Shown: positions 7,232-25,559 of the stretch, in pieces
How the letters are laid out: the number at the start of each line of letters is the position of its first letter
How positions within the stretch are numbered: the first letter of the stretch is position 1
Virus record (IMG/VR): IMGVR_UViG_3300026097_001066
Span: 1-57,470 of that record
Direction: 5' to 3' (one strand)
Origin: a virus
Lineage: Duplodnaviria; Caudoviricetes
Length of the DNA stretch: 57,470 bases
Position numbers and translations under genes: made by a program
Notes under the pieces: generated by a model
Told to the model about the DNA's origin: nothing
What the model saw: only the letters and a program-made list of their open reading frames with translations
The model's database searches: none

Positions 7232-7235
7232 GGCG

Positions 7236-7856: not shown

Positions 7857-7933
7857 TGATATATCTCGAAAAAAAATTTACTATAGTATATATTACTTAA
7901 ATATATTATATAATGTTAAAATGGATCTAAAAT

Positions 7934-9027: not shown

Positions 9028-10143
9028 TTATAAATTTTTTATTTTTGGAATTTTACTGTCTGCACTGCTAACACAACTATCCGTTATACACGGTTGTGGT
9101 TTATCAAATAACTTAAAACCAGTTTCTATGTTTCCTAAAGGGTTATCATGACAGCTATAAGATCTTTTAACACTACCATCAGGCTCGCGAATAATTATAC
9201 CACTGTAGCCTGCCTGGCAATTCCATCCTTTAAATTTGTTAAAGTTGAATGCATTAAACCGTTCTGCTTGATCCATATACCATTTTTTACCGTATTTGTC
9301 GGTAAATTCTACTTGAAAGTGCCAAGGAACGCTTGCATCTTTCTCGCTCATAATTCCTGGCGATATGTCGAAATTTGGTTTTGGTCTATCGGCCCATTTT
9401 CTTTTACTTTCTGTATATGCTCTCTGCGGCATTCCGTTGTATAATTTTTTTAGGTGCTCGTCTGTATAGCCATCAACAACTCTGCTTGCTGTAGGGTCGC
9501 TTTGAGGCTTTAGTGTGACGTTTATACCTTGCTCATGAAAGAACAGTGCATTGTCCCAATCTCGTTCAAACCATTCAGGCACCATAACCATATTGATTGT
9601 GACCTGAACATCATGCTCTTGACAGAATATCAGTTTGTCTGCAAACTCTTGTTTTTTTTCCGGCGTATTGATATATTCGGTGTGCAGACTTGCAGTTATA
9701 CTAGCGCGATGAAACGGTTTTGCATACTCCACATAAGTTTCAAACCAAGACATTTTTCTGCTACAGTTTGATGTCATATGGATACTGGTGTAGTTTGTGT
9801 TAGGCACGTCGTTGGCAAGATGTTTTAGAATATCCAAATAGCCGGGATGAAAAGTAGGCTCGCCGCCACTGAGACTAAAATGAAAACTGTTGAATCCGTT
9901 GGCACGAGCTTGACGTTTTATTTCATCAACAGTGAGTAGACATAATTCAGTAGGTCTGTGATCTTTTCTGTCGCTCCGTGCATAAGGCCAGCAATAAGAG
10001 CAGGAGTAATTACAAAACCTACCAAGAAGCCAACTGACCGTGAAGATATCTCTATAAAGAAGCGTTCTTTGACCCACTTGAACGATATCTTCGAAGGGAA
10101 TTTTTGTAAAGTCATAGTTGCTCCATTTTAAATTTTCAGTCAT
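9028..10143 (-). CDS. radical SAM protein with C-terminal twitch-like Cys cluster
   Basis: CNYSCSYC, SGGEPT, TSN; C-terminal FKGWNCQAG...SC...PCITDSC. Start taken as ATG 10143 (track gives 10155). Confidence 0.88.
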   Translation of the reverse strand: MTENLKWSNYDFTKIPFEDIVQVGQRTLLYRDIFTVSWLLGRFCNYSCSYCWPYARSDRKDHRPTELCLLTVDEIKRQARANGFNSFHFSLSGGEPTFHPGYLDILKHLANDVPNTNYTSIHMTSNCSRKMSWFETYVEYAKPFHRASITASLHTEYINTPEKKQEFADKLIFCQEHDVQVTINMVMVPEWFERDWDNALFFHEQGINVTLKPQSDPTASRVVDGYTDEHLKKLYNGMPQRAYTESKRKWADRPKPNFDISPGIMSEKDASVPWHFQVEFTDKYGKKWYMDQAERFNAFNFNKFKGWNCQAGYSGIIIREPDGSVKRSYSCHDNPLGNIETGFKLFDKPQPCITDSCVSSADSKIPKIKNL

Positions 10144-10696
10144 GCCATTTCTCATCTTGCATAGGATCTATACTAATTTCGTTTATGTTAACATTAAGTG
10201 GTTGATCTATTAACCATTTAATGTAAGCGGCTGCATGTTGTAATTCTAAACATTTTCTCTCTGGATGTTTTTTTTGATTGTTAGAAAGTGTTCCGAAACT
10301 GATGTATGATACTTTAGGCGACTGCGTCCAAACTCCTAATAGCCCTAAACTGTTAGAGTAATCCCTAAGTGCTTTCTTTTCAGCATTATAACGCCATGCC
10401 GTGGCTTTCTTTACTCTGTCAGTAGTGCTTCCCACATTAATTATATGTGGCGAATGATTGTTTTTCTCGCATTCTTTCCATATTGTTTCTAACAAATTTA
10501 CCTGTTCAAATTTCCAAAGAGCTACACAATTTACTATGACATCATGTTTAAGACATAGTTTTGCAAAACTTTCTTGATCTGTTCTATTAGTTAATTCATA
10601 CCCTGTAGTTCTACTACAGAGCGTTGCCGTAGGATATATTTTATATAACTCTGCAGAAAGACCATAGTATTCATTACCAGTTATCAAAACTTTCAT
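10136..10696 (-). CDS. short-chain dehydrogenase/reductase (SDR)
   Basis: MKVLITG..GLS Rossmann start, DVIVNC, HIINVGS, YNAEK (YxxxK). Confidence 0.8.
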   Translation of the reverse strand: MKVLITGNEYYGLSAELYKIYPTATLCSRTTGYELTNRTDQESFAKLCLKHDVIVNCVALWKFEQVNLLETIWKECEKNNHSPHIINVGSTTDRVKKATAWRYNAEKKALRDYSNSLGLLGVWTQSPKVSYISFGTLSNNQKKHPERKCLELQHAAAYIKWLIDQPLNVNINEISIDPMQDEKWHD

Positions 10697-11871
10697 AGAT
10701 CCATTTCCTTAAAACTTTTACGCCAACTAATATTTCTCGATTGGTCTAGGTCTTCGAGGTACTGCATAAATGTTGGACCTAGAGGTTTCCAGTTGTCTTC
10801 TTCGAACATGTGAGTAACATAAAATTGTACTTTTTCTGTGTATTTGCCAAAATCATAGTTTTTAATTTTCTGTTTTATTTGATTCTTTATATTGTTGGGT
10901 AAAACCTTTGCACTCATATGACTAGGCCATTCTACAAAATTTCCAAAGATAAACTTTATAAGTGGGTAGTTGTTTTTTATATAATCGTATGTATCTGTTA
11001 AATAGAACATACTTATGTTACTACAAGTCCATTGTACACCAATATCTAAATTTGGATTTTGTTCTGCGTAACTGTGCATTAAATCTAACTTCGTTTTAAA
11101 ATCATCCCATTTTATTGGAAATCTAAAATATTCTCCTGGCTCTTTAATTGCATCTAAACTTAATCGTATTATAACATTTTTAAATTTAATTAATTGATCA
11201 AAAATTTTTTCTGTAAGTAACGTACCGTTACTAACATAAGAAAGAGTAATATCTTTTGCGCAATCGCTAGCACTTATTTCTTTTAAAAACTTATTATGCT
11301 CTTTATTAGCAAAGGGTTCTCCGCCTAAAAAATTAAAACGCTTTGTCTGATATAGATTTTCTTTTATGTTGTCCCATATAAAACTATCTTGTTCAATCCA
11401 TTTATTGTCTATATCATAAAATTCGGTGTTAGGATATTTGTTGAGCATCGATTTATCTTCGTTCCATTTAGAACTTGCGCCTGTACCACAGTGTATACAC
11501 TTCAAATTGCATATTGTGCCAACCCTAATATCAATATTAGTAGGATAATATGGAACGCTGCCATCGGGCAGCGTTTTAGCAATAAGATGTTCGTTAGGTT
11601 CATAGTGATAACGATTTTCCTCAATTCGTTTACTGCTTCCGCCTAATTCTTCTACATACTTACAGCGTTTACAATTTTCAGGGTACCTGCCTTCTAAGAA
11701 TTCTTTTCGTATACTTTTAAAATACTCATTATTCCATTCATCGGCAATTGTACTGCCTTTTAGTTTTACCTGTGCTGCTTTTACCGTAGATTGATCAGCA
11801 TAACCGCAGGTTCGAGGCCTGCCGAATGTGTTAGTGCTAAAATTTATCCAAGGCAAAATACAAGGTTTCAT
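10693..11871 (-). CDS. radical SAM protein with N-terminal twitch-like domain
   Basis: CILPW...RTCG...CKRC N-terminal domain; CNLKCIHC; LGGEPF; YFRFPIKW. Start ATG 11871 (ATGA overlap). Confidence 0.88.
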   Translation of the reverse strand: MKPCILPWINFSTNTFGRPRTCGYADQSTVKAAQVKLKGSTIADEWNNEYFKSIRKEFLEGRYPENCKRCKYVEELGGSSKRIEENRYHYEPNEHLIAKTLPDGSVPYYPTNIDIRVGTICNLKCIHCGTGASSKWNEDKSMLNKYPNTEFYDIDNKWIEQDSFIWDNIKENLYQTKRFNFLGGEPFANKEHNKFLKEISASDCAKDITLSYVSNGTLLTEKIFDQLIKFKNVIIRLSLDAIKEPGEYFRFPIKWDDFKTKLDLMHSYAEQNPNLDIGVQWTCSNISMFYLTDTYDYIKNNYPLIKFIFGNFVEWPSHMSAKVLPNNIKNQIKQKIKNYDFGKYTEKVQFYVTHMFEEDNWKPLGPTFMQYLEDLDQSRNISWRKSFKEMDL

Positions 11872-12611
11872 ACAAGTCTTCCAAATGCGTATGCTCTTTC
11901 CATACAAAACCAGCACTGTCCACAATGTGTGTATTCTTGAAATCCGTTAACAATATTAGTTTTTGTTTTTTCTTCTGCTTTACTGTTTTCACAACTATAT
12001 GTTAATGGCAATAACTCATCCGTGACATTATTTTCTTTATACATTTTTGCAGTACTATGCCTCTTATCTCTACGAACAAACGGATGAATTGCATAAAATG
12101 GAACTTTAGTATCAGACCAGCTTCCTATTGGCTTTTTAGATAGATCGTCTCTTGCAAAATCTTTTTGTTTACACATCTCAAATACTTCAGCGTGTGTATT
12201 AAGAAAAATTCCCGAAACATGTTGTGCAATATTAGCTTGTAGTTCTATAGGTGGATTTTGTGTTAGGCCGCCGTACCACACATTTGCCTTACCTTCTGAT
12301 ATTATTTTATATGCATTGTCGTCTTGTTCTCTGATATAATCTTCAATTGTCCATGGGTTTGACAAAAATCTAATCCTGTGTTCGACTGGCTCAATGCCGG
12401 TGCGATCTTTTGTGAAAGTAATAACTTTTTTTGCATAATGACTATACCAAGGTTTAGTTTCGGTATCTAAAGTAGCACAGTAAATAGGTATGTCAAGATT
12501 TTTTTCAGCTATTTCTTTACATAACCTATAATATATTATCGAACTGTCGGCGCCGCCAGATAGTTTCATTACTATCCCGATAGTATTATTTGGTAATAAT
12601 TCAGTAAGCAC
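11868..12611 (-). CDS. QueC-like PP-loop ATP pyrophosphatase
   Basis: LSGGADSS PP-loop; HPF...DK; TYSCE...HCGQCWFCMER Zn-binding motif as in QueC. Confidence 0.75.
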   Translation of the reverse strand: MLTELLPNNTIGIVMKLSGGADSSIIYYRLCKEIAEKNLDIPIYCATLDTETKPWYSHYAKKVITFTKDRTGIEPVEHRIRFLSNPWTIEDYIREQDDNAYKIISEGKANVWYGGLTQNPPIELQANIAQHVSGIFLNTHAEVFEMCKQKDFARDDLSKKPIGSWSDTKVPFYAIHPFVRRDKRHSTAKMYKENNVTDELLPLTYSCENSKAEEKTKTNIVNGFQEYTHCGQCWFCMERAYAFGRLV

Positions 12612-12640
12612 TTCTGTAATAATAGTTTTCCTCCTAAAAT

Positions 12641-12647
12641 TATTTAT
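12641..12647 (-). promoter_or_regulatory. putative late promoter (ATAAATA) for the QueC-like/rSAM/SDR unit
   Basis: TATTTAT on + strand, upstream of SD AGGAGG (12635-12630). Confidence 0.5.
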
Positions 12648-12650
12648 CTA

Positions 12651-12666
12651 TTATATACGCACATAA
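12651..12666. promoter_or_regulatory. 16-bp palindromic motif TTATATACGCACATAA
   Basis: Identical (reverse complement) to 56617-56632; lies between divergent genes. Confidence 0.7.
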
Positions 12667-12669
12667 ATA
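12663..12669 (+). promoter_or_regulatory. putative late promoter (ATAAATA), leaderless geometry
   Basis: 5 nt upstream of ATG 12675, no SD. Confidence 0.55.
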
Positions 12670-12674
12670 CACTT

Positions 12675-13517
12675 ATGAGAGACAACATAAAAAGAGAATA
12701 TACCCAAGAATGGCTGCAATATGACAGACCACAGCCTATGTATAGCAGAGAAATTAATAAATTTTATGATCGTTTTTATCAAGAAAATCCGGTTCATACT
12801 CCGGATTTAGATCAACAGTTTAAAGATACTTTTATTAAATGGTTAAAAGATCATAAGTTTAGTGCATTCCTCGGATTGGATGCATTTCCGAGAAGAGATA
12901 TTATAAATGGCTGTACACAGTTTATAGACGATTTATATCAACGCTGCGGAACATTACAAACATTCGAAAACGATTACAAGTATCACTGGAGACTTAATCC
13001 GGATATTGTATACACTACACTAGACACATTAGATCCTAGCAAAGAACTATTAATTTCCATGCCATTTCCGTTCTATGGCGATGTACATCCGGACATGCAA
13101 AAAATACTAGATACTGCATACAAAAAAAATATTCCTGTACACATAGACGGAGCATGGATCAGTTGTATAAGGGACATCGAGTTTAACTTTGATCATCCTG
13201 CTATACAGACTGTAGGCATTAGTTTAAGTAAAGGCGGTATGGGAGGGAATCGTATTGGATTAAGATTTGCTCGTTCAACACCTGAAGGTTCTGTAACTAT
13301 TATGAATGATTTTAACATGAATAGTCAAGCACTTGTAAGCATGGGTATAAAATTTATGACAGAGTTTGGACCTGAATATTTTTGGACAAGTTATCAAGAA
13401 GCATATTATCAAGTTATTAAAGATTTTAACCTAGAACCTACAAAAGCAATTCATCTTGCTAGGAGAAATGATAACCCTGTTGGAGTTAGACCATTGTTAA
13501 GATTTTTACAACCTTAA
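12675..13517 (+). CDS. PLP-dependent fold-type-I enzyme (aminotransferase-like, short)
   Basis: NGCTQ, ISMPFPFYG, HIDGAW (DxA), ISLSKG (Schiff-base Lys), RIGLR. Confidence 0.65.
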   Translation: MRDNIKREYTQEWLQYDRPQPMYSREINKFYDRFYQENPVHTPDLDQQFKDTFIKWLKDHKFSAFLGLDAFPRRDIINGCTQFIDDLYQRCGTLQTFENDYKYHWRLNPDIVYTTLDTLDPSKELLISMPFPFYGDVHPDMQKILDTAYKKNIPVHIDGAWISCIRDIEFNFDHPAIQTVGISLSKGGMGGNRIGLRFARSTPEGSVTIMNDFNMNSQALVSMGIKFMTEFGPEYFWTSYQEAYYQVIKDFNLEPTKAIHLARRNDNPVGVRPLLRFLQP

Positions 13518-13577
13518 TTGATGACTTTATTAATCTATTTAAATACATAAAAAAATTTTGTTTTTTAATTACACACA

Positions 13578-14747
13578 TTAGATGTTATCAATAGTCCATC
13601 CTAGAAAGTTCCAAGTATCAGTGCCCCGCCATTTATCAGTCATGTTAACATGATGTTTAAACATTTCTAATTGGACAACTTCTTTGTCTTGTCTTAATAA
13701 GTTAATTAATTCTTCTATATTTTGGATTTCGTTGCTGTAAAACTTGTATTTCGATATAATATTTTCAAGTTTGTCGGCCTCTTTTAATCTAAGTTCCTTA
13801 GGAGAATTTTGTAAACTATACCACATAGTCCCATTTAACCAACTAAAGCCAATTTGAAATCTTTCTACATCACCTGTATAACTTTTAAACCAATCTATAC
13901 TATCATATAAATTATCTATATTCAAATTATGCGGAACAACAATAAACTTACATGATAACCAAGGATATTTTTTTAAAATATCTACACTTTTTACAGTATC
14001 TTCCCATTTTAACGGCCATCTTAGATGTTCATAATGTTTTTTGCCTACGCCGTCAATGCTAAAATTAATATGGCAATGATCAAAATTTTGTAATTTTTTA
14101 ATTTGATTCTCAGAAAAGCTTCCATTTGTAGTAACACTTAAAATTGGTAATTCTTTTTCTGAACTAATAAGTTTATCGATTAGATTATCAAAATGCACAT
14201 TAATAAAAGGTTCACCGCCGCTTATTTCTAATTTATTAATTACATCAGCCTTATTCACAATACTATCTGTTATATTTTTGTACCAAATTTTTGTTTTATT
14301 CCATTCAAACTTTTTCTCCATAACTTTTTTTAAATCAGTATATTCTACAGTATCAATCATGTTTTTATATTGTTTTTCTACTAAGCTGCTACGACTAACA
14401 TTGCATATCCTACATGCAGTATTACACTGATTTCCAAAAGTTATCATTATATGCTCAATGTTATCAAGATTTGATTTTTTCTTATTATAATATTTTACAC
14501 GTCGCTCACGCATACTTTCAGTTTCTTGATCTTCTTGTTTCCAACATATGTTGCATCCAGGAATTTTTTCTCCGTTGTCTAAAGATTTTTTGATAGAGTC
14601 GAGCCATTTACTAGAAACATAGTCGTCTATGTTATCTATACCATGATCTCTATTACCTATATATTGGCAGCAAGGCCCTAAATTTCCTCTACTGTCAAAA
14701 TGAACTTGTTTATAAGGCTCTGTACAAAATGTCTTTGATTTAGTCAT
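13578..14747 (-). CDS. radical SAM protein with N-terminal twitch-like domain
   Basis: FCTEPY...PCC...CNIC; CNTACRIC; SGGEPF; TTNG; FSIDG; HLRWPLKW. Confidence 0.88.
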   Translation of the reverse strand: MTKSKTFCTEPYKQVHFDSRGNLGPCCQYIGNRDHGIDNIDDYVSSKWLDSIKKSLDNGEKIPGCNICWKQEDQETESMRERRVKYYNKKKSNLDNIEHIMITFGNQCNTACRICNVSRSSLVEKQYKNMIDTVEYTDLKKVMEKKFEWNKTKIWYKNITDSIVNKADVINKLEISGGEPFINVHFDNLIDKLISSEKELPILSVTTNGSFSENQIKKLQNFDHCHINFSIDGVGKKHYEHLRWPLKWEDTVKSVDILKKYPWLSCKFIVVPHNLNIDNLYDSIDWFKSYTGDVERFQIGFSWLNGTMWYSLQNSPKELRLKEADKLENIISKYKFYSNEIQNIEELINLLRQDKEVVQLEMFKHHVNMTDKWRGTDTWNFLGWTIDNI

Positions 14748-14755
14748 ACATGTTC

Positions 14756-15397
14756 CTATTTAAAAAAAATTGTAGTTTTTCTTTTATCCCATCCCATATT
14801 TGTGGTAATAATTTTATATTCGTTATCGTAAGTTATAATATTTTCTGTTTTAAATTTTATTTTATTTTGCATGAATCTATTAGATAATCTTTGGACCATT
14901 CGTGCTTGAATTTTTTTATTTAGGGCTGCAAAAATTATTCCTCTGTGAATAAAAAAAGGGAAACATTTGCACTCTAAAATTAACTTAGACACCAAAAGAG
15001 TATTACAAGCGTTTCCGCCAAATGCATAAAATGATACACACATCTTATTCTTTATCTTTGAATAATTTTCTATAAAAAAATTGTATAGATCATTATCGCT
15101 TACATCTATGTGTAAATAAGTTGAAGCAGTAGAAAAATTAACTCCATTTGTCTCTTTTATTTCTAAAATTGGCACCTGTTGTTGCCATTTTTTATATAGT
15201 TTACAGAATTTATGTCTATCGGAAATTGCTGAAAAATTTTCAAATAATGTAATTTTGTCTAGTTCGTCCCAATTGTTAACGAAATTCGCACAGAGATATT
15301 CACCGTCGAATACTCCTATTATTTCTGTTGATGAAAACATTTGTGGATAACAAGGAATTAATTCACTCAAGATAGGATTTTGTTCATTAATTATCAT
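14756..15397 (-). CDS. hypothetical protein
   Basis: Fills the gap in the operon; probable start ATG 15397 (ATGA overlap), track gives GTG 15424. Confidence 0.6.
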   Translation of the reverse strand: MIINEQNPILSELIPCYPQMFSSTEIIGVFDGEYLCANFVNNWDELDKITLFENFSAISDRHKFCKLYKKWQQQVPILEIKETNGVNFSTASTYLHIDVSDNDLYNFFIENYSKIKNKMCVSFYAFGGNACNTLLVSKLILECKCFPFFIHRGIIFAALNKKIQARMVQRLSNRFMQNKIKFKTENIITYDNEYKIITTNMGWDKRKTTIFFK

Positions 15398-16284
15398 TGC
15401 ATTTTCGATTGCTCTAATCTCCACTTGTCTAGTAAATCTTCGTCTAACTCTATAATAAATGTCATAAGCAATCCCATTTTACTATTCCATTTTTTAGCAG
15501 GTTCTGTGCCTTTAGTACCTTCATTTGTTGCGTGTAATTGAACAGCATCAAAAATACACGGAGATCCGGGAACCCAATCAAATACAGATTCTGGGTTTAA
15601 TCCTTGAACTCTGCGATAGGGTGTATTTAAATATTTCTTATGAAAATCTTTATCAAATGGCTCATTATTGTGTTCGATTGGACAGCCATTTCTATCATAA
15701 AACTGCAAATAACTGTAATCAGTCACAATTTCGTATATACTCGCAATGTTTGGAGTTAGTGCACCACCATTGTACACTTTTGCCCACCCTATATCTCGCT
15801 GTTCAAAGAATATAATTTGTCCTCCGTCGACTTCATCCAAATGTGTTCCTATCCAAAGAGGAGTAATTATATTTTTCCATGTTGTATATTTTCGCTGAGG
15901 ATGACTTAAAGGTACTTCTTCGAGCATGCCATTATAACCTTTTTTACGCATAGCATCTTGATGTAAACCGTACTGTTGCGGAGTAATAAAATAGTTGCCT
16001 CCGATGGTAGGAGATTTCCCTGCGACAGAACCTAACACTGTGTCAAATTTTTCTTTATAACGCTGATAGATTATTTCCATATCAACATCTACAATAACAG
16101 TACCGTTACGATTCAATCGAGGTTTATTAAAATCAGCAGTAAAAGCATTATGCCACATCCATTCTAATTCATCTTCTGTCCATAAATTTTCAATACATTC
16201 AGCTTTACTACTATGTCTTCTTACATTTTCTATTGCAATAGGATGGTCCATCGGTAGTAAATAGAATCCCGGTTCGTCAACCAT
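15394..16284 (-). CDS. 2OG-Fe(II) oxygenase-like protein
   Basis: YGLHQD (HxD), NIITPL, GGQIIFF, WVPGSPCIFDAVQLHAT, KMGL. Confidence 0.6.
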   Translation of the reverse strand: MVDEPGFYLLPMDHPIAIENVRRHSSKAECIENLWTEDELEWMWHNAFTADFNKPRLNRNGTVIVDVDMEIIYQRYKEKFDTVLGSVAGKSPTIGGNYFITPQQYGLHQDAMRKKGYNGMLEEVPLSHPQRKYTTWKNIITPLWIGTHLDEVDGGQIIFFEQRDIGWAKVYNGGALTPNIASIYEIVTDYSYLQFYDRNGCPIEHNNEPFDKDFHKKYLNTPYRRVQGLNPESVFDWVPGSPCIFDAVQLHATNEGTKGTEPAKKWNSKMGLLMTFIIELDEDLLDKWRLEQSKMQ

Positions 16285-17349
16285 TTATTTCTCCATATAT
16301 TTTTTTAGTAAAGGATTATGGTTACCAATATCTGTATGTAATGCCATATCCATATCTGATGTATATTTTCTAAGTTCTTCAAATTTTCCATTATACTGGA
16401 TGCTTGGTAAATATTTTTTATTAAAACTATCTGTAGTTTGTTGTATATAGGAGGAAGGCAAACTATTTACGCTAAGATATTCAGGTACTTGTAATAAACT
16501 ATTATGAAATTCTATACCTAATTCGTCAGCTAGGGCTTTAATATTTTTAACATCGTGAAAATTATATGCCTGAACTGTTGTAAACACAGAAAGTTTCAAA
16601 TTATCTGATTTACTTTTGTATTTTGACCAACTATGTATTGTTTCATAAATTACACTCCATGATTTTCCGTGTCTAATATATTCATTTACAGGGCCAATAC
16701 CATCGATACTTAATTCAACACTGAGTTTTTTCAGTTTTTTAAAATATGGTAAAAATTTTGAAGGAAAATAGGTTGCATTTGTATTACAAATAAAATGTAT
16801 ATTCTCAAGTAAATTATTTTGATTTAAAAATTTGAATAAATCCCAAACTTGTGGTGTTACAAAGGGTTCACCTCCTAAATATTTGATTCCTTTAAGTTTT
16901 GAAAGATCAATAGAAGCAAACACTTTTTCTATGTCAATAAATGGTTGATCATACGGTGAGTGGTATTTTTGTGCAAGTTTTGTTTTGCGCACAAATTTAT
17001 CCCATTTAGTGCTATATGCAGGACTACACATTCTACACATTAAATTACATTCATTAGAAACACTTATTTCGATATATTCAATTTGATCTTCTCCAGACCA
17101 ATTTTCATTCATTGTTAATCTTAAACTTTTGTGTCCGCGTTCTTCCTCAGTTTTACATTTTAAACAGCCTTCTGACCAGCCTTCTTCCATGTCTGTGATA
17201 ATTTTTTGATAGAATTCATTATTTTTATATTCGTCAAAAGGTGTATCAAAAATTTTTACATTTGGAAAATTTGCAAATCGGCAACACGGACGCCAAGAAC
17301 CTGTTACTGTTACACACATATGGTTTTTTAATGCATTACATTTAGGCAT
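16285..17349 (-). CDS. radical SAM protein with N-terminal twitch-like domain
   Basis: KCNAL...PCC...CLKC; CNLMCRMC; LGGEPF; NTN; LSIDG; YIRHGKSW. Confidence 0.88.
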   Translation of the reverse strand: MPKCNALKNHMCVTVTGSWRPCCRFANFPNVKIFDTPFDEYKNNEFYQKIITDMEEGWSEGCLKCKTEEERGHKSLRLTMNENWSGEDQIEYIEISVSNECNLMCRMCSPAYSTKWDKFVRKTKLAQKYHSPYDQPFIDIEKVFASIDLSKLKGIKYLGGEPFVTPQVWDLFKFLNQNNLLENIHFICNTNATYFPSKFLPYFKKLKKLSVELSIDGIGPVNEYIRHGKSWSVIYETIHSWSKYKSKSDNLKLSVFTTVQAYNFHDVKNIKALADELGIEFHNSLLQVPEYLSVNSLPSSYIQQTTDSFNKKYLPSIQYNGKFEELRKYTSDMDMALHTDIGNHNPLLKKYMEK

Positions 17350-18810
17350 TTATTTTTGTACCTTTTTAGATTGTAAAATATCTTGTATTTTTTTCTTGAC
17401 CATCCAAGTTTGTTTTTGTCCAAAATATTTTTCTATTAAGGTGTTAACTTCTAGTAATCTTTTAAGACGAGTATCGAGTGTATTATCTTTGTATTTCCAG
17501 TCAAACTCATTGTGATAATAATCTAAATCATTAACTACCTTTTGCCATAATGGTTGTGTGTCGTCTAACATTAATATGTTTGCAAAACTAAAATGAACAA
17601 CTTTTCGGTTACCTATCCAAGTATATTTCTTTTTATGAAATTGTTTTAGAACTTTTTTAGTTATTTTGTGATCTTTTTCAGTTTCTGTAGGGTATCCGAC
17701 GAATGCAAGTACAGTATATTGGATTTCATATTTATTTAACATTTCAAAACACCACCACATGTCCTCTTGTGAGAATTTTTTACCCATATCGTATCTAATT
17801 TTTTCGCTAAAGGATTCTATTCCTATTTCTAATCCTTGACAGCCTGATAATTTCATTAGTTCAAAATCTGATGCAGGACTGTGTTTTTTATCTCTAACAA
17901 TCCACTGACTATGCCAAGATATTTTATTATTTTTGTCCTGATTTGCATTATAATCTGCTAATATATTTAAAAGTCGTCTAAAAGATTTTAAGCTTCCGTT
18001 AATTAAACTATCTGTAAAAATAAAAGTCTGCCTATTGTATTTTTTTTTAAGTGTTATAATTTCCTCTGCAATTTTCTCTCCTGACCTAAATGTATATTTT
18101 GGCCACATTTCAAAAACATTACAAAAATCACATCTTTTAACACATCCTCTACTGCCCGTAACATATACTGAATTTTTAAAACTTTGATCATCTATATAAG
18201 GGTAGTCGTTCCAATTTATATCGTCATAATTAGGAATAAGGACTGAATCTAAATTTTTTAATTGTGCCGGTCCGTTTTCATTTATACCTGGCGCATATGG
18301 ATTTCCATTTAACAGTTCTACTAAAGACTCTTCTGCATCACCAGAAATATAATAGTCTAACAACCCTAATTCCTTTACATATCTTCCTCTATATTGAGAA
18401 ACCTCTGCTCCTCCCCAAATTATTATAGTTTTTGGTAAGTGCTGTCTTATCAATAATGATAATTTAAGGGCAACTGCACTACTCATGTAAGTTAAAAGAC
18501 TTAAACCTATAAATTTAGGATTTTTTTCTTTAAAAATTTCAATCCATTTATCAAAAACATACTTATATTTTTCATATGTTTGACCAAAAGTTTGGTCTAA
18601 CTTTTTTATATCTCGTTCTTTAAAAACTAAATCTCTATCAAAAAATAAATCAATATCACCTTTTTTTTCAGCCTCTTTATATAAATCTATGTTTAAATCC
18701 ATTACTTCTGCCACGAACCCGGCGTTTTCTAGATGTGATTTTAAAACGGCTGGACCTACAGTAGGAGCTCTTGGTAAAATTTTAGGAACAATGCAAATTA
18801 TGATATCCAA
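17350..18810 (-). CDS. cobalamin-binding radical SAM protein (class B methyltransferase-like)
   Basis: N-terminal B12-domain features (DLN, FIGLS, IIWGGA, GDAE); GSRGCVKRCDFC; FTDSLING; IGIES; GYPTET. TTG start. Confidence 0.85.
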   Translation of the reverse strand: MDIIICIVPKILPRAPTVGPAVLKSHLENAGFVAEVMDLNIDLYKEAEKKGDIDLFFDRDLVFKERDIKKLDQTFGQTYEKYKYVFDKWIEIFKEKNPKFIGLSLLTYMSSAVALKLSLLIRQHLPKTIIIWGGAEVSQYRGRYVKELGLLDYYISGDAEESLVELLNGNPYAPGINENGPAQLKNLDSVLIPNYDDINWNDYPYIDDQSFKNSVYVTGSRGCVKRCDFCNVFEMWPKYTFRSGEKIAEEIITLKKKYNRQTFIFTDSLINGSLKSFRRLLNILADYNANQDKNNKISWHSQWIVRDKKHSPASDFELMKLSGCQGLEIGIESFSEKIRYDMGKKFSQEDMWWCFEMLNKYEIQYTVLAFVGYPTETEKDHKITKKVLKQFHKKKYTWIGNRKVVHFSFANILMLDDTQPLWQKVVNDLDYYHNEFDWKYKDNTLDTRLKRLLEVNTLIEKYFGQKQTWMVKKKIQDILQSKKVQK

Positions 18811-18815
18811 AGTGA

Positions 18816-20225
18816 TTATAAATCCTTAAAAATTTTTGTCATTTCTGGAAAATTTTTTAAAAAATCTGTGTTACGCTGTTTGTCACATAACTCTAAAAAT
18901 TCTTTAGTTTCAGGAAGTCTTATACTCCAATCTTCACTCTCCATAAATTGTAACATGCCTTTTAGCCTATTTATCCCGTAAGGTGCGTTTATAAATTCTT
19001 CTTTCGTAACCTTACCTTTATGCCAGCTAGGAATACCAAGATCCCAATTTTCTTCCCACCACGGATAAAATTCCTCGTATTTTTTGCGAACTTCTGCTTT
19101 AAACCATTCAGGCAACACCTTGACGTTTAGATGAGGCGGATGATATACAAAATGATAGTTAATTGCTCCTGCTCCAAACGGCCACATATTAATTTTATTA
19201 AACCCCTGTTCTAGCTTCCAGCGTATAAAGTCCGGTATGTAGTAGATATTCAGTGCCTGAACTGCACATGCAACTGTAACTTCTACATTGTTGCTAGTTT
19301 CTTTATCTAGGATGTGAAATACTTCTTCTGTTCTAGACCATTTACTAGGATATCTTATATATTCGTTTCTTTCAAAAATATCGTCAACTGAATAGTGGAA
19401 GCGAACCAATTTAAATTCTTTCCAAAGATCAAACAGATCGTCGCGCCACTCAACTCCGTTGGAGTTATAACGCAGTTCAAGATTTTTTGCATAACCCATT
19501 TTGATTGCATATTCGAGGATTTCATAATGCTCTTCAATAATTAGACTTTCGCCGCCGGCAAAGTAAATCTGTTGCATGCTAGACATTTGCTCATAAAACT
19601 GCTCCCAGAACTTAGGATTTTGTTTGTGCCAATTGTAACTACTGCCATTGTAACTTCCTTTATCCTGCCATTGCATAGTTTCTTTTAAAGATGCATTTTC
19701 AACTGCTGGAAAAATTGCTTTGTAATCTTTAATCCAACCTGAACTATCGTGCGGTGAACACATGACACAGGCAAGTTGACACTTGGTGCCAAATCGAAGA
19801 TCGATGTAAGCCAATTGCGGTGGCACACTCCCATCTTCTGCTGTGTTTTTTATTAGAGTATCAACATCGACTCGCTGGCTCCAATATTTTGTTTCCCACA
19901 TCCGTTTGCTGTTATGTCCTGCTGCTTCTTCTTTGAAACATTTAACACAACTGGGAGGTATTTCGCCATTTAACATTTGTTTGCGGACATTTTTCATGTA
20001 ACTGCTGTTCCAAGCAGTTTCAAAATCACTTACATTTAGATTGTTAGGTTTACCGTCGTCAGTTTTAAGAATACCAACCTGGCCGCCATGTTCTTTATCA
20101 TTAGTAGGACCAACTGAACTGGCATTTGCCGTGCAACACACTCGCATACTTCCATCTGGTCTGGTGCTTAGATGAACCCAGGGTAATATACAAAAGGTGT
20201 TCGAAGGGGATTTTTTATTTGACAT
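18816..20225 (-). CDS. radical SAM protein with N-terminal twitch-like domain
   Basis: FCILPW...VCC...CVKC; CQLACVMC; AGGES; NSNG; YIRYPSKW. Confidence 0.9.
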   Translation of the reverse strand: MSNKKSPSNTFCILPWVHLSTRPDGSMRVCCTANASSVGPTNDKEHGGQVGILKTDDGKPNNLNVSDFETAWNSSYMKNVRKQMLNGEIPPSCVKCFKEEAAGHNSKRMWETKYWSQRVDVDTLIKNTAEDGSVPPQLAYIDLRFGTKCQLACVMCSPHDSSGWIKDYKAIFPAVENASLKETMQWQDKGSYNGSSYNWHKQNPKFWEQFYEQMSSMQQIYFAGGESLIIEEHYEILEYAIKMGYAKNLELRYNSNGVEWRDDLFDLWKEFKLVRFHYSVDDIFERNEYIRYPSKWSRTEEVFHILDKETSNNVEVTVACAVQALNIYYIPDFIRWKLEQGFNKINMWPFGAGAINYHFVYHPPHLNVKVLPEWFKAEVRKKYEEFYPWWEENWDLGIPSWHKGKVTKEEFINAPYGINRLKGMLQFMESEDWSIRLPETKEFLELCDKQRNTDFLKNFPEMTKIFKDL

Positions 20226-20229
20226 AATG

Positions 20230-20237
20230 TATTTATA
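20230..20237 (-). promoter_or_regulatory. T4-like late promoter TATAAATA, leaderless geometry
   Basis: Exact TATAAATA on - strand, 4 nt upstream of ATG 20225, no SD. Confidence 0.6.
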
Positions 20238-20270
20238 ATGCTTGATTTTTAAATTTTTAGTTATTGAAAT

Positions 20271-21359
20271 TTATTCCCTAAATTTATTTTTTGAAAATTC
20301 TACATCTCCACTTTCTAACATTGTTATCTTATGCTCTATTTCCCATCGTTGTCTATTATTTACGCTACAAGTATTTGTGCATACGGGATTTCTACTGCAG
20401 GGTGTTAACTTTTCATGATCTACATTATTCCAACTTTCAGTTAAATCGTTTTTAAAAAAAGAATGTTCTAATATTTTATCTATGTGATGATAGTAAACAT
20501 TATTCCAATTTTTTCCGTATACATTATCATATCTTTTCCAATGTTCTTCAAAGTCTACTACTCTATATCGTATGTTATACATGAAACAACAAGGAAAAAT
20601 TTCTCCTGTATGCGCAACAAAATATGCTTTTTCGTCGTTTGCAGTTTTGCAATATATATTACCTTTAAACCTTTTGAGAGCGTGTACATATTCAGACCAA
20701 GATAAAGTGTGTCTCCTTTTTTCGTTTTCGAATTTTTTTGATAATTCGTGTAAATCTAAATTATCTAAACTTGTATCGTTTCTCTCTCTAAAAGAACGAA
20801 ATCCCATTGATTTTGCAAGTTGTTTTGCTTCTTCAATTTGATGTTTATTCCAAGGAAAAACTACCCATTGCCAACTAGGACTGCCGCCTGCTGATATAAA
20901 GGCGCGAGCGTTCTCCATAATTTTTTTAAAATTTGTTCCTCTTCTATAGATATGATTTGTATCTTCTAATCCGTCTACACTAAAATTTAAGGTATACTTT
21001 GTTCCTTTTAAAATCTTAGCCATATCTTGCCAGTAACTCGACGATCGTAAACTAGCATTCGTATGTATAATAATTCTAAAATTTGTGTGTTGAACTATAT
21101 AATATAACATATCAAGAAATCTAGGATGCATTAATGGATCGTCTATAGATGCACAAAATTGTATTTCTTCAACACTTTGAAATCGTTTTGCATGTAATAT
21201 TTCTACAAATTTATCAAAATCTAAAAATTTGTTTTTTGGAATTCTAGGATTTAATTTTAATTCGTTAAATGGATCAGCTCGGCTGCACCCTATACAATTT
21301 GCATTACAATTGCTACTAAGTTCAAACTGCACAGCCTTTGGTTCTTCTAAATAATGCAT
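20271..21359 (-). CDS. radical SAM protein with C-terminal twitch/SPASM-like domain
   Basis: CNANCIGC; CASIDDP in place of GGEP; HTNAS; FSVDG...YRRG; C-terminal YC...PCC...CTNTC. Probable start ATG 21359. Confidence 0.87.
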   Translation of the reverse strand: MHYLEEPKAVQFELSSNCNANCIGCSRADPFNELKLNPRIPKNKFLDFDKFVEILHAKRFQSVEEIQFCASIDDPLMHPRFLDMLYYIVQHTNFRIIIHTNASLRSSSYWQDMAKILKGTKYTLNFSVDGLEDTNHIYRRGTNFKKIMENARAFISAGGSPSWQWVVFPWNKHQIEEAKQLAKSMGFRSFRERNDTSLDNLDLHELSKKFENEKRRHTLSWSEYVHALKRFKGNIYCKTANDEKAYFVAHTGEIFPCCFMYNIRYRVVDFEEHWKRYDNVYGKNWNNVYYHHIDKILEHSFFKNDLTESWNNVDHEKLTPCSRNPVCTNTCSVNNRQRWEIEHKITMLESGDVEFSKNKFRE

Positions 21360-21378
21360 TTTTTTTAAATTTTCCTTT

Positions 21379-22323
21379 TTATTTTTCTTTGCTGATTTCA
21401 ATATCACTTCCACAAGTACATTCTGCATATTCACATATGACTGGTTTTTTTAACAACAAAAAATTTTTAGGATCTTTTTTGATATTTCCCATTACAATTT
21501 GTTGATTGCAAGCATTAGCAGGAACAATATCACCGTTGGCTTTAATTACTAGTAGATCTCTGCCAATATTACATGCCCAACCTTTAAACTTATTTCGACC
21601 TGCTTGTATTAGATCATGATTAGTTTCTTGTGTTACTGTGCCGTTATCGTAATAACAATTGATACCCAGACTTGTAATATTTTTTTTAGTACTAGGCCTA
21701 TATGCTGTTGATTTATGTGCTTGCTTCATCCATTTAATTTGAGCAGTTGTATATTGCATCCAATCACTTTTTCCAAATTCAACTTGAAGTTTTTTGACTT
21801 GTATTGGTACTACTGTATTATCTCTTAGTTTTTCATAAATAGAGACACACTTGTTCCAATTGTTTACATCCATTAGCATTTGTATATTTGTTTGGCAACT
21901 ATTTTTTATATTATTAACGACTTGAATCGTATGATTAACATCAGCCTGTTCGTGGTGATAGCTAATACTAACTTTGTCAAGATACTGCTTTGTCCGATTC
22001 CACCAATTAATGGTCCTACTTCCGTTAGTCAAAATATTAACCATACTGTTCGGATCTGTATTTTTAATAATTTCACTTAGTCGTGTAAAGTACTTCCATA
22101 CCGTAGGTTCACCACCTAGTATAGTATAAATTCTATAATCGTGATTACTTTGTTCAGTAATTCTTTTTACAATAGTTTCGCATTGGTAGATATCTGGCCA
22201 GTATAGATCGCCGCCATTACTGTCTGGTGTACAATAGCTGCATTTAAAGTTGCATACATTTGACAGTATCCAATCTACAACTAATATATTATTTCTGGTT
22301 TTAATTTTTTGTAAATTTGCCAT
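21379..22323 (-). CDS. radical SAM protein with C-terminal twitch-like domain
   Basis: CNFKCSYC; LGGEPT; TNG; FKGWACNIG...AC...CEYAECTC. Confidence 0.88.
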   Translation of the reverse strand: MANLQKIKTRNNILVVDWILSNVCNFKCSYCTPDSNGGDLYWPDIYQCETIVKRITEQSNHDYRIYTILGGEPTVWKYFTRLSEIIKNTDPNSMVNILTNGSRTINWWNRTKQYLDKVSISYHHEQADVNHTIQVVNNIKNSCQTNIQMLMDVNNWNKCVSIYEKLRDNTVVPIQVKKLQVEFGKSDWMQYTTAQIKWMKQAHKSTAYRPSTKKNITSLGINCYYDNGTVTQETNHDLIQAGRNKFKGWACNIGRDLLVIKANGDIVPANACNQQIVMGNIKKDPKNFLLLKKPVICEYAECTCGSDIEISKEK

Positions 22324-23461
22324 CTGCTTTTTCGATCATGTATCGCATATAAGGATATTGTTCTAGGTATTTAACATTACATTTATAATTCCAAATATCT
22401 TCGCTGTAATGCTTTAGCATGTTGCACTCTTGTTGAGTAGGTTCTATATATTCGTATATTAACTTATCTTTAAACATTTGCCAGTTGATATTACCATTTT
22501 TTACTTCTAAAGTTTTAAAATTATTAATTAAATTTTGTCTTTCCTCTAAAGGAACATACCTATAATTCAAAAAACTAGGATGATCAACTTCGTTGTAAGA
22601 GACTCTTGATTTTGGAAATTGATTTGCCCAAGTTATAAACTCTGCCATATTTAAAAGATTTAAATGTGTTAGGCACGGAGTAAGAGATACTTTGCAAGAT
22701 GTGTTATACATTTTTATAAAATTTTTTTCAATAGTAGCCCACCGTGCTGGATATCTTTGATATTCTAATGCTCGACCAGTTCCATCTATACTGCACATTA
22801 ATTCTACTCTTTTAAATTTTTCTAATGTGTCTAACACCCTTGTTTTTGCACTTGTACAATTCGTAATAAATTCAATATCTAATTCTGTTTTTCCTCTTTC
22901 TACTAACTTGAATAAAAACTCTTCAACTTCTGGCATAATAAAAGGTTCGCCGCCTGCGAATCTTATTTTTTTAAGACTAGGTAATTCTAAAACTAGATTT
23001 AGCAATTTTTCTGTATCAGAAATAGTAGGAACACAGGTTTTATATAGATCATTATCAATTCCTTGATTATAAAGTTCAGTAGCAAGATTTGCAATTTGAT
23101 CGCTTGCGCCGCCGTAGCACATCTTACATTGTAAATTACATTTATTGCTTAATCTTAAATCTACAAATTCTAGATCAACTATGCGAGGTATTATTTGGTC
23201 ATTTAAAGTTCTGTGACGTTTACTTTGTGCATTTTTATTTTCATACTTCCAGCATGATTCACATGCTGAATTTTGTATTCCATTTTTTAAATCATTTCTA
23301 ACATCATTTAACCAACTATTTGTTTTATACCATTCGTTTAAATCTGATATAGATTGCCAATCTTTAATTTGTACATCCCTAGACTGTGTACAACAATGAC
23401 CTATCCAACCTGTGGTACTAACTGCTAAACTATTGTATACCAAAGGACAATTAATCATCAC
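22301..23461 (-). CDS. radical SAM protein with N-terminal twitch-like domain
   Basis: NCPL...HCC...CESC; CNLQCKMC; AGGEPF; CSIDG; YQRYPARW. Confidence 0.88.
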   Translation of the reverse strand: MMINCPLVYNSLAVSTTGWIGHCCTQSRDVQIKDWQSISDLNEWYKTNSWLNDVRNDLKNGIQNSACESCWKYENKNAQSKRHRTLNDQIIPRIVDLEFVDLRLSNKCNLQCKMCYGGASDQIANLATELYNQGIDNDLYKTCVPTISDTEKLLNLVLELPSLKKIRFAGGEPFIMPEVEEFLFKLVERGKTELDIEFITNCTSAKTRVLDTLEKFKRVELMCSIDGTGRALEYQRYPARWATIEKNFIKMYNTSCKVSLTPCLTHLNLLNMAEFITWANQFPKSRVSYNEVDHPSFLNYRYVPLEERQNLINNFKTLEVKNGNINWQMFKDKLIYEYIEPTQQECNMLKHYSEDIWNYKCNVKYLEQYPYMRYMIEKADGKFTKN

Positions 23462-24480
23462 TGCACTCCGTTGTATAGAGGTAAAGGTCTTTTAACTCCT
23501 GCACAATTATTACAAATATCAATAGATTGTGCTTGCCATGCAGGATGCAAATCCTCAACAAAATAATTTACTATATCAGATAGACTTTGTTTTAATATGT
23601 GGTTATTTTTATATTTAACATAATCAAAATTTGTTTTCTTATCTATTTGTCGGCCACTTATATAACAACAAGGCCATACATTGCCCCAGGGATCTATTTG
23701 TATCATTCCTTCTTGTGCATATGGGCATTTAAATTTTCCTTCTGGAGTATTAACTTTAGTAGACGGAGTACGAACACTATAGGCAAATACATCTTTTCTC
23801 ATATAGTTAGTCTTAAATTCTCTTTGATCAGGAGAAGTTAATTGCTGTGCTGGAAAATTTCTATAAGCCTTCATTTGTAGAGGGTTAGATCTATTTCTAT
23901 TTGTCTGAAATGCCATACAGCCTAGATCTTGTGCTAATTTGCTCATTTCGTCTAGCTGATATTTATTGTAATCAAATACTATACATTTCCATATACTGTT
24001 ACCACCGGCGGTATTAAAACTTTTAATATTTTCAATACGCTTAGTCCAATCAATCCCTCTACGATAAATGGCATGTGTTTTTTCTAGGCCGTCGATACCA
24101 AATTTTATATCGTGTTTGACAAATTTATTAAGAACTACAGCAAGATCATGCCAAAATTGTGCGTTTCTTGCACCACCGTTAGTATTTAGATTTAGATATA
24201 GATTTGTTTTTTTTGCAGCTAGCATTTCCATCATTTCAATAAAATTTGGATGCATACTAAAGTCTCCAAAATTGCCATTGAAAATTATTTCATTTATCTG
24301 ATCTATCATAGGATCATCAACTAATCGTTGCCATACTTCTAAAGACAAATGATTTTGTTGTAGTCCTTTCACTTTTTCTCCGCCAGAAACATTTCTATCA
24401 CAGGCACCACAAAATGCATTGCAGAAACTTGTGCAGTCTATTTCGATTTTAGAAATACTTTTAGGTGAATACAGATTCAT
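23458..24480 (-). CDS. radical SAM protein with C-terminal twitch/SPASM-like domain
   Basis: CNAFCGAC; NGNFGDF; NTNGG; FGIDG...YRRG; KCP...PCC...CNNC. Confidence 0.87.
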   Translation of the reverse strand: MNLYSPKSISKIEIDCTSFCNAFCGACDRNVSGGEKVKGLQQNHLSLEVWQRLVDDPMIDQINEIIFNGNFGDFSMHPNFIEMMEMLAAKKTNLYLNLNTNGGARNAQFWHDLAVVLNKFVKHDIKFGIDGLEKTHAIYRRGIDWTKRIENIKSFNTAGGNSIWKCIVFDYNKYQLDEMSKLAQDLGCMAFQTNRNRSNPLQMKAYRNFPAQQLTSPDQREFKTNYMRKDVFAYSVRTPSTKVNTPEGKFKCPYAQEGMIQIDPWGNVWPCCYISGRQIDKKTNFDYVKYKNNHILKQSLSDIVNYFVEDLHPAWQAQSIDICNNCAGVKRPLPLYNGVQ

Positions 24481-25559
24481 TTAAATTGCTCTGCGAAGGG
24501 ATCAAATTCTGATCCGCATTTTTGCGCACACACTCCTAGTTTTCCCTGTTCGATGCTGTTTAGGTTCCAACTTGAAGTAATGCTTTCGATTAACTTGCCA
24601 TTCACAACATCTTCAATTTCGTTTTCAATTACACTAATACCTTGTTTTCCGCCTGCTACATCGATATGATCCCATATTTGTTCTACTCGAGGATCACTGT
24701 GCCACCATTTATACATACGCCCAGCGGTCCAGCAACAAGGCATTAATAGTCCTTCTGCTGTGATGAAAATACTACCCTGTTTTGCTACTTTGCACTCAAC
24801 ATTGCATCTGTCTAAATATTCACTCATACTACCATATGACTTGACAATTTCTTTTTGTTTCAGTAATGCAAGATTTTGGTTTTGTTCTTGTTTGGGTTTT
24901 TGTAATTTTGCAGTTTCTTCACCTTTTCGATTTACTGCCTGATGAGCTTCTTTAGGCTTAATATCGCTTGTGACAAATCTTCCTGATTTCTTTTTAATAA
25001 ATTTTTCGAAACCCCATTCACCGGACAGTTGTTCAGCTTCTTTAACTTGGTGTTCGTTGTGCTGAAATACCAGAAAGTCCCATCTTCCTCTGCCTCCGGC
25101 ACTGGTAAATGCTTTCATTGAACGCTCTACATTATCCCAGTTTACACCTTGGCGATATATATGATTAGTATCCCGTAGGCCATCAACGCTGAAAATAACA
25201 GCACCCATCTTGCCGAAAATTTCTGCAAGTTCTCTCCACCATGTTTCATCTCTTGCTCCTGCGTTTGTGTTCATACTCAACCACATGTCGGGATTATGTT
25301 CTCTAAAATATCGAAATATTTCTAATGTATCTCGTGCTACAATAGGATCGCCCAAATTGCCGCACATGTACATTGTTTTTAATTGTGCAATAAACTCGGG
25401 TTTAAAAATACACTTGCAGTCTTCTAAACTTAATTCAGCATTTGTAATATGCGGATTATCTGCGCCACCGTTCATGTTACGATCGCACATAGGACAAGCA
25501 GCTTGACATCTTTGTGTTATTTCAAGATGCACTTCTTTTATATCTTGATATCTATACAT
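24477..25559 (-). CDS. radical SAM protein with C-terminal twitch/SPASM-like domain
   Basis: CQAACPMC; CGNLGDP; NTNAG; FSVDG...YRQG; EC...PCC...CAQKC. Confidence 0.88.
   Translation of the reverse strand: MYRYQDIKEVHLEITQRCQAACPMCDRNMNGGADNPHITNAELSLEDCKCIFKPEFIAQLKTMYMCGNLGDPIVARDTLEIFRYFREHNPDMWLSMNTNAGARDETWWRELAEIFGKMGAVIFSVDGLRDTNHIYRQGVNWDNVERSMKAFTSAGGRGRWDFLVFQHNEHQVKEAEQLSGEWGFEKFIKKKSGRFVTSDIKPKEAHQAVNRKGEETAKLQKPKQEQNQNLALLKQKEIVKSYGSMSEYLDRCNVECKVAKQGSIFITAEGLLMPCCWTAGRMYKWWHSDPRVEQIWDHIDVAGGKQGISVIENEIEDVVNGKLIESITSSWNLNSIEQGKLGVCAQKCGSEFDPFAEQFK

Follow-up and report, generated by a model that had tools for sequence, protein, structure and literature searches.

The stretch of DNA analysed here is the IMG/VR virus record IMGVR_UViG_3300026097_001066 (57,470 nucleotides, hereafter the window), and it carries five genes of the N_Twi family of radical S-adenosylmethionine (SAM) enzymes, in which an N-terminal twitch domain lies before the radical SAM core. 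The observation, the architecture and the family are confirmed, and homology to a known twitch domain argues that the inverted architecture is real. For the function of the array, the best-supported guess is that radical chemistry tailors a sugar or glycan, probably one borne by a virion component, and it is given a probability of about one half. The five genes sit in a block of 11 radical SAM genes (9028-25559; Table 1), downstream of tail-fibre, GT8-like (glycosyltransferase) and methyltransferase-fold genes, and the reading frames upstream of the array on the same strand overlap or abut. The six other radical SAM proteins of the block comprise one with a B12-binding domain, three SPASM-like ones and two others. 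A PP-loop ATPase, an aminotransferase-like gene, a short dehydrogenase-like gene and two unassigned genes are interleaved in the array.

The first-pass annotation of this DNA had listed five paralogous radical SAM genes starting at 10693, 13578, 16285, 18816 and 22301, and the open reading frame (ORF) list of the window holds all of them as intact minus-strand ORFs. The count is right for N_Twi members, but the six further radical SAM genes of the same block had been left out of it. Membership was decided with the NCBIfam model NF033640 (N_Twi_rSAM, 'twitch domain-containing radical SAM protein'), which has 398 positions and a curated cut-off of 170 bits; the family name had been given by the first-pass annotation, and the search bears it out, as all five proteins exceed the cut-off (209.9-422.0 bits) and each match is nearly end to end, beginning at model positions 1-5 and ending at 360-397. 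When the whole record was searched in six frames with this model, 10 matches were returned, five of them over the cut-off and belonging to the same five genes, and the cut-off was reached in none of the 14 control genomes. Pfam PF04055 (Radical_SAM) gave 33.8-53.5 bits for the five against a cut-off of 29.5. A grouping with the housekeeping enzymes MoaA or anSME, which the first-pass annotation had named as the outcome that would speak against it, was not seen: the MoaA models, whose cut-offs are 231-325 bits, scored 18.7-46.6 bits, and TIGR03942 (anSME) matched none of the five in the NCBIfam search.

In the five-way alignment (18816 numbering) the invariant N-terminal Cys residues are C12, C30, C93 and C96, in the pattern C...C(C)...CxxC with the spacing C12-x17-C30-x62-C93-x2-C96, and they are followed by the invariant core motif CxxxCxxC (C149-x3-C153-x2-C156). 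The further invariant residues are G224-G225-E226, S279-x-D281, E288, R291 and W296, so the shared motif that had been read by eye as S(I/L/V)D...(Y/H)xR...W, S-x-D...E(Y/H)xR...W in the alignment, is common to all five copies. The 10693 copy indeed reads RTCG where the others read CC, and only the second Cys of the pair is lost; this second Cys also varies among 88 diverse family members (mostly below 60% identity to each other). Across the 88 aligned members the invariant columns are the four plus three Cys, GGE, N256, S279 and R291, and the N-terminal Cys module precedes the core in every one of them as it does in the five window copies. The ORF list takes the frame of the 10693 copy back to a TTG at 11925; its start is more probably the ATG at 11871, which forms an ATGA overlap with the upstream stop codon. 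The five proteins show no structural difference from the NF033640 family, as they share the same four-Cys module, CxxxCxxC and GGE.

The twitch or SPASM domain is usually placed C-terminal to the barrel, and in all five copies it is N-terminal. The claim of a twitch-like Fe-S domain at the N-terminus was examined with a profile built from the first ~115 residues of each of the 88 members, and its best solved match is the C-terminal twitch domain of BtrN (4m7t, E 2.4e-7), where the alignment (BtrN residues ~158-257) pairs all four Cys. The same match is obtained with the full-length family profile; outside the twitch module the BtrN match falls below threshold, around the CxxxCxxC segment. Pfam SPASM touches residues 4-66 and 12-96 of two copies, at or near its threshold. 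BtrN is the 2-deoxy-scyllo-inosamine dehydrogenase of the butirosin pathway and the founding twitch radical SAM enzyme (PDB 4m7s/4m7t); it is a sugar-type (aminocyclitol) dehydrogenase which oxidises a secondary alcohol, and four Cys ligate its auxiliary cluster. The five genes are predicted to be active N_Twi members, each binding the SAM-cleaving [4Fe-4S] cluster on CxxxCxxC, and we infer a second [4Fe-4S] cluster fully ligated by the four Cys of the N-terminal twitch. A fully Cys-ligated auxiliary cluster beside the barrel, as is known for BtrN and predicted here, suggests a role in electron relay. The two differ in that the twitch follows the barrel in BtrN and precedes it in N_Twi, and an extra helical C-terminal region of ~110 residues is added in the AlphaFold2 (AF2) model of the 18816 protein. 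That model, for which the 88-row alignment was the input, is compact and has high confidence (pLDDT 91.5, pTM 0.91); the fold search with it against PDB returned only generic radical SAM cores (CteB, SkfB, SuiB, anSME, viperin and BlsE, with TM-scores of 0.25-0.5).

The copies are not equivalent in their distribution. A pattern scan found 332 viral relatives of the 18816 copy, of which 80 were kept (80-89% identical), and its 120 best database proteins are at least 80% identical. Ninety loci were fetched around such relatives, 80 of them viral and 10 from genomes titled as metagenome-assembled genomes (MAGs). A copy at least 50% identical was present in 89 of the 90 for the 18816 type, in 77 for the 24477 type and in 37 for the 9028 type; the corresponding numbers for the other N_Twi copies were three (10693), two (13578), zero (16285) and one (22301). 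The viral pattern scan gave a single locus at 55% identity for the 10693 copy and none for the 16285 copy, which has its own full-length orthologues at 33-84% identity in a large protein database. The 24477 type adjoins the N_Twi core copy in the MAG loci too, and the 9028 type is adjacent to it in the loci L087, L088 and L089. Thus 18816, 9028 and 24477 make up the conserved core trio of the island, and the other four N_Twi copies are rare, anciently diverged and swappable cassettes.

Arrays are the rule, as 79 of the 90 loci hold 2-8 N_Twi-like ORFs within 10 kb. When the 1,602 genes of the 90 loci and the window are taken together, the N_Twi cluster accounts for 323 of them, the 24477-type cluster for 193 and the 9028-type cluster for 96 (612 in all), and 313 N_Twi proteins form 91 groups at less than 60% identity. 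The five window copies stand in five separate places on a FastTree of 95 sequences, and three of them, including 13578 and 22301, pair with copies from one contig (L063); this is a quick method, and with several long branches the deep order of the tree is unsafe. The idea of the first-pass annotation that each paralogue may act on its own position or substrate is consistent with these separate places and with each copy having its own orthologues. The other four copies are only 22-31% identical to the 18816 copy and each of the five is closer to copies on other contigs, therefore an origin of the five as recent tandem duplicates is ruled out.

The first-pass annotation had supposed the family to be largely phage-borne. 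This holds for the 18816 copy, with its 332 viral relatives against 10 in species genomes (all of them MAGs) and with its nearest ESM-Atlas clusters 97-100% viral, but a phage-only distribution of the family is not upheld. Five of the ten MAGs carry from 6 to ~16 copies each above the cut-off, spread over several contigs in four of the five, and no homologue of the window baseplate gene was found in those five MAGs. In the phylum of one MAG (G002), 31 of 151 sampled genomes carry the family above the cut-off, some on contigs of 2.6-3.8 Mb; in that of another (G001), only the seed genome does (1 of 151, with 0 of the 150 others), and all its copies lie on one 80-kb contig. The cellular distribution is therefore patchy. 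Mis-binning of phage DNA perhaps explains the copies of G001, and it is refuted as an explanation of all MAG copies by the phylum of G002, where they stand on megabase-scale contigs beside housekeeping genes. Cellular and viral copies interleave on the tree. A search of 1.84 billion sequences with the 88-row profile gave 9,990 representatives (of clusters at 50% identity) at E<=1e-30. About 40 of the best 150 family matches are 750-1470 amino acids (aa) long with at least two matched stretches, and these appear to be tandem fusions.

Gene neighbourhood in bona fide cellular DNA is the strongest independent clue to function. Five of six cellular loci of Bdellovibrionota type have GT2, GT1 or GT9 genes within ~10-20 kb of the N_Twi genes, and one of these five also has an ABC-2 exporter pair. 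Another of the five has genes for an APH-type kinase, a MobA-like nucleotidyltransferase, an SGNH protein and a nitroreductase. Housekeeping genes are found on both sides of the cellular N_Twi loci. Sugar or glycan tailoring is favoured because of these glycosyltransferase neighbourhoods, the GT8-like and methyltransferase genes of the window itself and the homology of the twitch module to a sugar-type dehydrogenase.

In such a scheme the N_Twi enzymes would act on nucleotide-sugars or on a glycan under construction. A hydrogen would be taken from a sugar C-H bond by the 5'-deoxyadenosyl radical, and the auxiliary cluster on the four Cys may take or return an electron as a relay, with oxidation to a keto-sugar, epimerisation or a related rearrangement as the possible outcome. 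The aminotransferase-like, PP-loop, short-chain-dehydrogenase-like, methyltransferase, B12 radical SAM and dioxygenase neighbours could elaborate the intermediates, and the GT8-like transferases would attach the product. The 18816, 9028 and 24477 enzymes would then serve as a fixed core, and the four cassette copies may vary the product between related phages. A virion component is the most likely target, because the island sits in a tail-fibre module and encodes no exporter; the preference for the virion over the host surface is the weakest step of this proposal.

Several points weigh against sugar tailoring. Neither an assayed member of the N_Twi_rSAM family nor a paper on it was found in the literature searched (the supplements of PMC7029224 and PMC12801897 may list such genes), so that membership in NF033640 names an architecture and not a function. 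A glycosyltransferase gene neighbourhood is an association and not a proof, and one of the six cellular loci (L087) has no glycosyltransferase among the ORFs scanned. The generic matches of the fold search are of no help on the substrate. The window holds no recognisable gene for nucleotide-sugar synthesis (nucleotidyltransferase or 4,6-dehydratase), and the reading of 26647-28275 as a tandem glycosyltransferase depends on motifs seen by eye. The remaining points agree with an alternative that is held to be unlikely, in which the array modifies a protein or peptide directly (epimerisation, C-methylation, crosslinks or hydroxylation) with a fibre protein or the 76-aa product of 25552-25782 as the substrate, in the way known from the proteusin/polytheonamide and sactipeptide pathways. 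SPASM/twitch radical SAM enzymes more often modify peptides, most of the characterised ones being peptide maturases, and the best solved matches for the radical SAM core are the peptide maturases TigE, SkfB, CteB and SuiB. The combination of a B12 radical SAM gene with TauD-type dioxygenase and Asp/Asn beta-hydroxylase-family genes in the island fits protein modification too, and an M16 peptidase is present in one cellular locus.

The conserved 76-aa ORF bears on this alternative from both sides. It lies directly in front of the SPASM-type 24477 radical SAM gene, and does so in ~31 of the 67 loci having both; it overlaps both of its neighbours by a few bases and, present in 67 of the 90 loci at 67-82% identity, it is among the most conserved genes of the island. 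Its motif is LQxESARALSTMQATNNNI...AHHNSQNWYKAVIEWY...GDLPS..GPGK. However, this ORF, the only small conserved one, shows conservation through its entire length (28 columns invariant among 44 sequences) without a variable core, the window copy has no Cys, the adjoining radical SAM is not an N_Twi member, and Bdellovibrionota-type loci that have the radical SAM trio lack the ORF. It matched no family in Pfam or PHROG. Complex prediction of the 76-aa protein with the 24477 radical SAM gave 0.00, 0.50 and 0.00 in three runs and counts neither way. Direct peptide modification is further disfavoured by the lack of any RRE or PqqD-like domain detected in the 11 radical SAM proteins with Pfam and NCBIfam, by the absence of a leader peptidase or exporter from the window, and by the glycan-type character of the cellular N_Twi loci.

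Related islands have been described in other phages. Zaragoza-Solas et al. 2020 (PMC7029224), in the portion of that paper dealing with this region, place the hypervariable host-recognition island of T4-like pelagi- or cyanomyophages between VrlC and the neck protein gp14, report GT8 genes in the pelagimyophage island for which host-surface modification is favoured, and devote one sentence to radical SAM cassettes that differ between two pelagimyophage islands; the family, architecture and numbers of the radical SAM genes are not identified in that portion. The window has the same ingredients as this host recognition cluster (tail fibres, a GT8-like pair and radical SAM cassettes) and the same variable content across the 90 loci. 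It differs in that its structural genes are closest to phages of the Atu_ph07/Phosso/Rak2 type (30-55% identity) and not to T4-like pelagiphages, and in that it ends before any neck gene. The same role could be imagined here, with the tailored sugar or glycan fed into the envelope pathway of the host so that the surface of the infected cell is altered and superinfection is blocked, and the O-antigen-type exporters and GT9 genes of the cellular N_Twi loci are in keeping with it. We regard this as quite improbable, since no transporter, priming transferase, flippase, polymerase or exporter is found in the window, and of 37 window proteins checked only the desaturase-like one has transmembrane-like segments, all the glycosyltransferase-like proteins being predicted soluble. 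The genes are moreover co-oriented and packed with tail-fibre genes, and a lytic giant phage would presumably gain little from a slow change of the surface.

Tailoring of the virion itself resembles what is known of chlorovirus PBCV-1, in which soluble glycosyltransferase and methyltransferase domains encoded by the virus assemble, in the cytoplasm, an unusual glycan on a protein of the virion, and fusions of glycosyltransferase and methyltransferase also occur in relatives of the window island. PBCV-1 is a virus of eukaryotes and is not known to have radical SAM enzymes.

A last alternative is that the array hypermodifies phage DNA or nucleotides, or makes a small diffusible metabolite such as an aminocyclitol-type antibiotic; this is held to be very unlikely. 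The action of BtrN on an aminocyclitol speaks for it, as does the QueC-like PP-loop protein, which recurs in 55 of the 91 sources (the window and the 90 loci). One related locus is bordered by a gene for thymidylate synthase, and others contain carbamoyltransferase and nitroreductase genes. Phage QD01 of a laboratory strain of Vibrio natriegens (L096, 132-157 kb of the record) encodes three radical SAM proteins that match the N_Twi model end to end at 110-132 bits, and they were not filed as members as the cut-off is 170. The QD01 genes lie among nucleotide-metabolism genes, beside a QueC-like PP-loop gene and a heptosyltransferase-like gene, and this phage is a possible culturable model. In the portion of PMC12801897 concerned, a cyanophage radical SAM gene with two amino-sugar-type neighbours (an aminotransferase and an amidinotransferase) is termed 'antibiotic synthesis genes'. 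Against these points, no gene for a DNA transglycosylase, base kinase or glycosylase is present in the window, and both the position in the fibre module and the association with glycosyltransferases point elsewhere. The PP-loop protein of the window, for its part, has no match to any NCBIfam model and only weak QueC and PP-loop matches, the QueC ones covering just its C-terminal part; its profile matched PDB only at the P-loop. Its invariant residues in 30 homologues are S18-G20-A21-D22-S23 and C207/C230/C233/C236.

Table 1. Features of the radical SAM block, the genes upstream of it and the tail-fibre genes in the window (positions are those of the window)
Position	Strand	Feature	Size and basis
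9028-10155	-	Radical SAM, third member of the conserved trio	375 aa; Pfam Radical_SAM 51.7 bits
10693-11871	-	N_Twi radical SAM, RTCG variant, rare cassette	392 aa; NF033640 310.8 bits; all four cluster Cys kept
11868-12611	-	PP-loop ATPase (SGGADS) with C-terminal 4-Cys site; QueC-like layout, not a QueC member	motif conservation in 30 homologues
12675-13517	+	Aminotransferase-like (tentative), sole plus-strand gene inside the array	280 aa; valine-pyruvate transaminase model E 1.3e-8, far below cut-off; no Pfam match
13578-14747	-	N_Twi radical SAM, cassette	389 aa; NF033640 209.9 bits
16285-17349	-	N_Twi radical SAM, cassette	354 aa; NF033640 222.2 bits
17350-18810	-	B12-binding (class B) radical SAM, likely C- or P-methyltransferase type	486 aa; Pfam B12-binding and Radical_SAM
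18816-20225	-	N_Twi radical SAM, conserved core copy of the island	469 aa; NF033640 422.0 bits
20271-21434	-	Radical SAM, paralogue of the 24477 type	387 aa; Pfam Radical_SAM; clusters with 24477 and 23458
21379-22323	-	Radical SAM	314 aa; Pfam Radical_SAM 46.3 bits
22301-23461	-	N_Twi radical SAM, cassette	386 aa; NF033640 225.4 bits
23458-24480	-	Radical SAM with C-terminal SPASM	340 aa; Pfam Radical_SAM; SPASM 21.7 bits, residues 252-326
24477-25559	-	Radical SAM with C-terminal Cys-rich (SPASM-like) end, conserved core partner	360 aa; Pfam Radical_SAM
25552-25782	-	Conserved ORF between the genes for the methyltransferase-fold protein and the 24477 radical SAM, translationally coupled	76 aa
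25779-26663	-	Class I SAM-methyltransferase fold protein	294 aa; AF2 pLDDT 87
26647-28275	-	Two-repeat protein with one DGD (DxD-like) motif per repeat; possibly a tandem glycosyltransferase	542 aa; motifs read by eye
28833-29669, 29662-30525	-	Two GT8-like glycosyltransferase paralogues	profile of 17 homologues against glycogenin-1 E 1.9e-5; invariant D87/D89
30915-31865	-	Ser/Thr/Gly/Asn-rich protein encoded directly after the tail-fibre genes; speculative acceptor candidate	316 aa; composition
31903-37363	-	Three tail-fibre-like genes with shared N-termini	PHROG tail-fibre, tail-collar, virion structural; Pfam Collar, Peptidase_G2

Some of the genes in Table 1 need further description. The best NCBIfam models for the B12-binding protein (17350-18810) were PhpK and the RiPP C-methyltransferase, both below cut-off. 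For the 25779-26663 protein, the 50 best Foldseek matches listed for its model are almost all SAM-dependent methyltransferases or methyltransferase-fold proteins, and its profile gave nothing useful by sequence against PDB. The 26647 type has no support in Pfam, and its profile gave only marginal matches to designed armadillo-repeat proteins in PDB. In five other loci (L044, L054, L057, L010 and L056) the 26647-type protein is ~1050-1130 aa long and fused to a methyltransferase-fold domain of the 25779 type, and these fused proteins carry 6-7 copies of a ~22-residue repeat, NVHSLFRLLG..EDLRKAV.E; the two window genes are therefore a split form of one protein. The first GT8-like copy matches Pfam Mannosyl_trans3 at 23.7 bits (cut-off 22), and the 30915 protein has no family match in Pfam or PHROG.

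The consensus of T4 late promoters is TATAAATA, and it occurs twice in the 57 kb against ~10 occurrences expected, at 20230-20237 and 31900-31907 on the minus strand. Each copy lies on the coding strand immediately before a gene, namely 18816 (4 nt from the start codon) and 30915 (35 nt). An argument on expression timing from these sites was dropped, as the copies are too few and the first is just 4 nt before a start codon.

The window is linear and is estimated to be 15% complete. The baseplate wedge protein, a 204-aa protein and a 5049-aa protein are closest to those of giant myoviruses of the Atu_ph07, Phosso, SCTP-2, PA5oct and Rak2 type, at 29-55% identity. Four related viral contigs of 99-182 kb have the same baseplate gene at 58-69% identity, and because these are rated 26-51% complete, genomes of this lineage would be near 360 kb. 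This comparison points to the window being a fragment of a ~360-kb uncultured marine giant myovirus with Atu_ph07/Rak2-type phages as its relatives. No cultured-phage record was matched by megablast of 10000-24000, and the protein search against cultured phages gave only distant matches at 20-24% identity (Ralstonia phage RsoM2USA and several Vibrio phages). A search for sequencing runs with this DNA listed five DNA runs, four of them at small shares, and no RNA run.

Other genes of the window were recorded during the survey. On the far side of the array, 4482-8985 holds a cluster of oxygen-dependent enzymes (two of the TauD family, one of the Asp/Asn beta-hydroxylase family and one desaturase-like membrane protein) together with three small ORFs having HxD-type motifs, read by eye; these oxygen-dependent genes adjoin the eleven oxygen-sensitive radical SAM genes. 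At 3001-4437 (plus strand) a 478-aa protein matches Mtd_N, the N-terminus of the major tropism determinant, at 45.7 bits, so that the island may have an additional receptor-binding protein at its far side. The 5049-aa protein is a single ORF (38004-53153, minus strand) placed after the baseplate wedge gene; its only Pfam match is one CBM_5_12 carbohydrate-binding module, and over the first 1000 residues it is similar (29% identity) to virion structural proteins from phages of the Atu_ph07 and PA5oct type. The gene at 208-1494 (plus strand) has the PHROG label 'HNH endonuclease', and this label looks wrong because Pfam gives DUF2201_N (putative metallopeptidase) and a VWA-like domain.

The N_Twi family comprises ~10,000 sequence clusters without a known reaction, and it makes up a large share of the genes of a fast-changing island beside the host-recognition genes of abundant marine giant phages. 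If these enzymes edit sugars, they would offer new radical chemistry for glycobiology, and the phages would be covering either their own particles or their hosts with glycans varied in a combinatorial way, a matter of relevance to host range, superinfection and the escape of virions from recognition. The conserved trio of 18816, 9028 and 24477 is a defined first target for biochemistry. A wider proposal, put forward here tentatively and with more doubt than belief, is that N_Twi may be a very large unexplored class of radical sugar-editing catalysts which giant aquatic phages shuffle as cassettes, giving each strain its own exotic fibre glycan. If true, such a system would parallel O-antigen diversification by means of radical chemistry, with viruses as its carriers and predatory bacteria as exchange partners.

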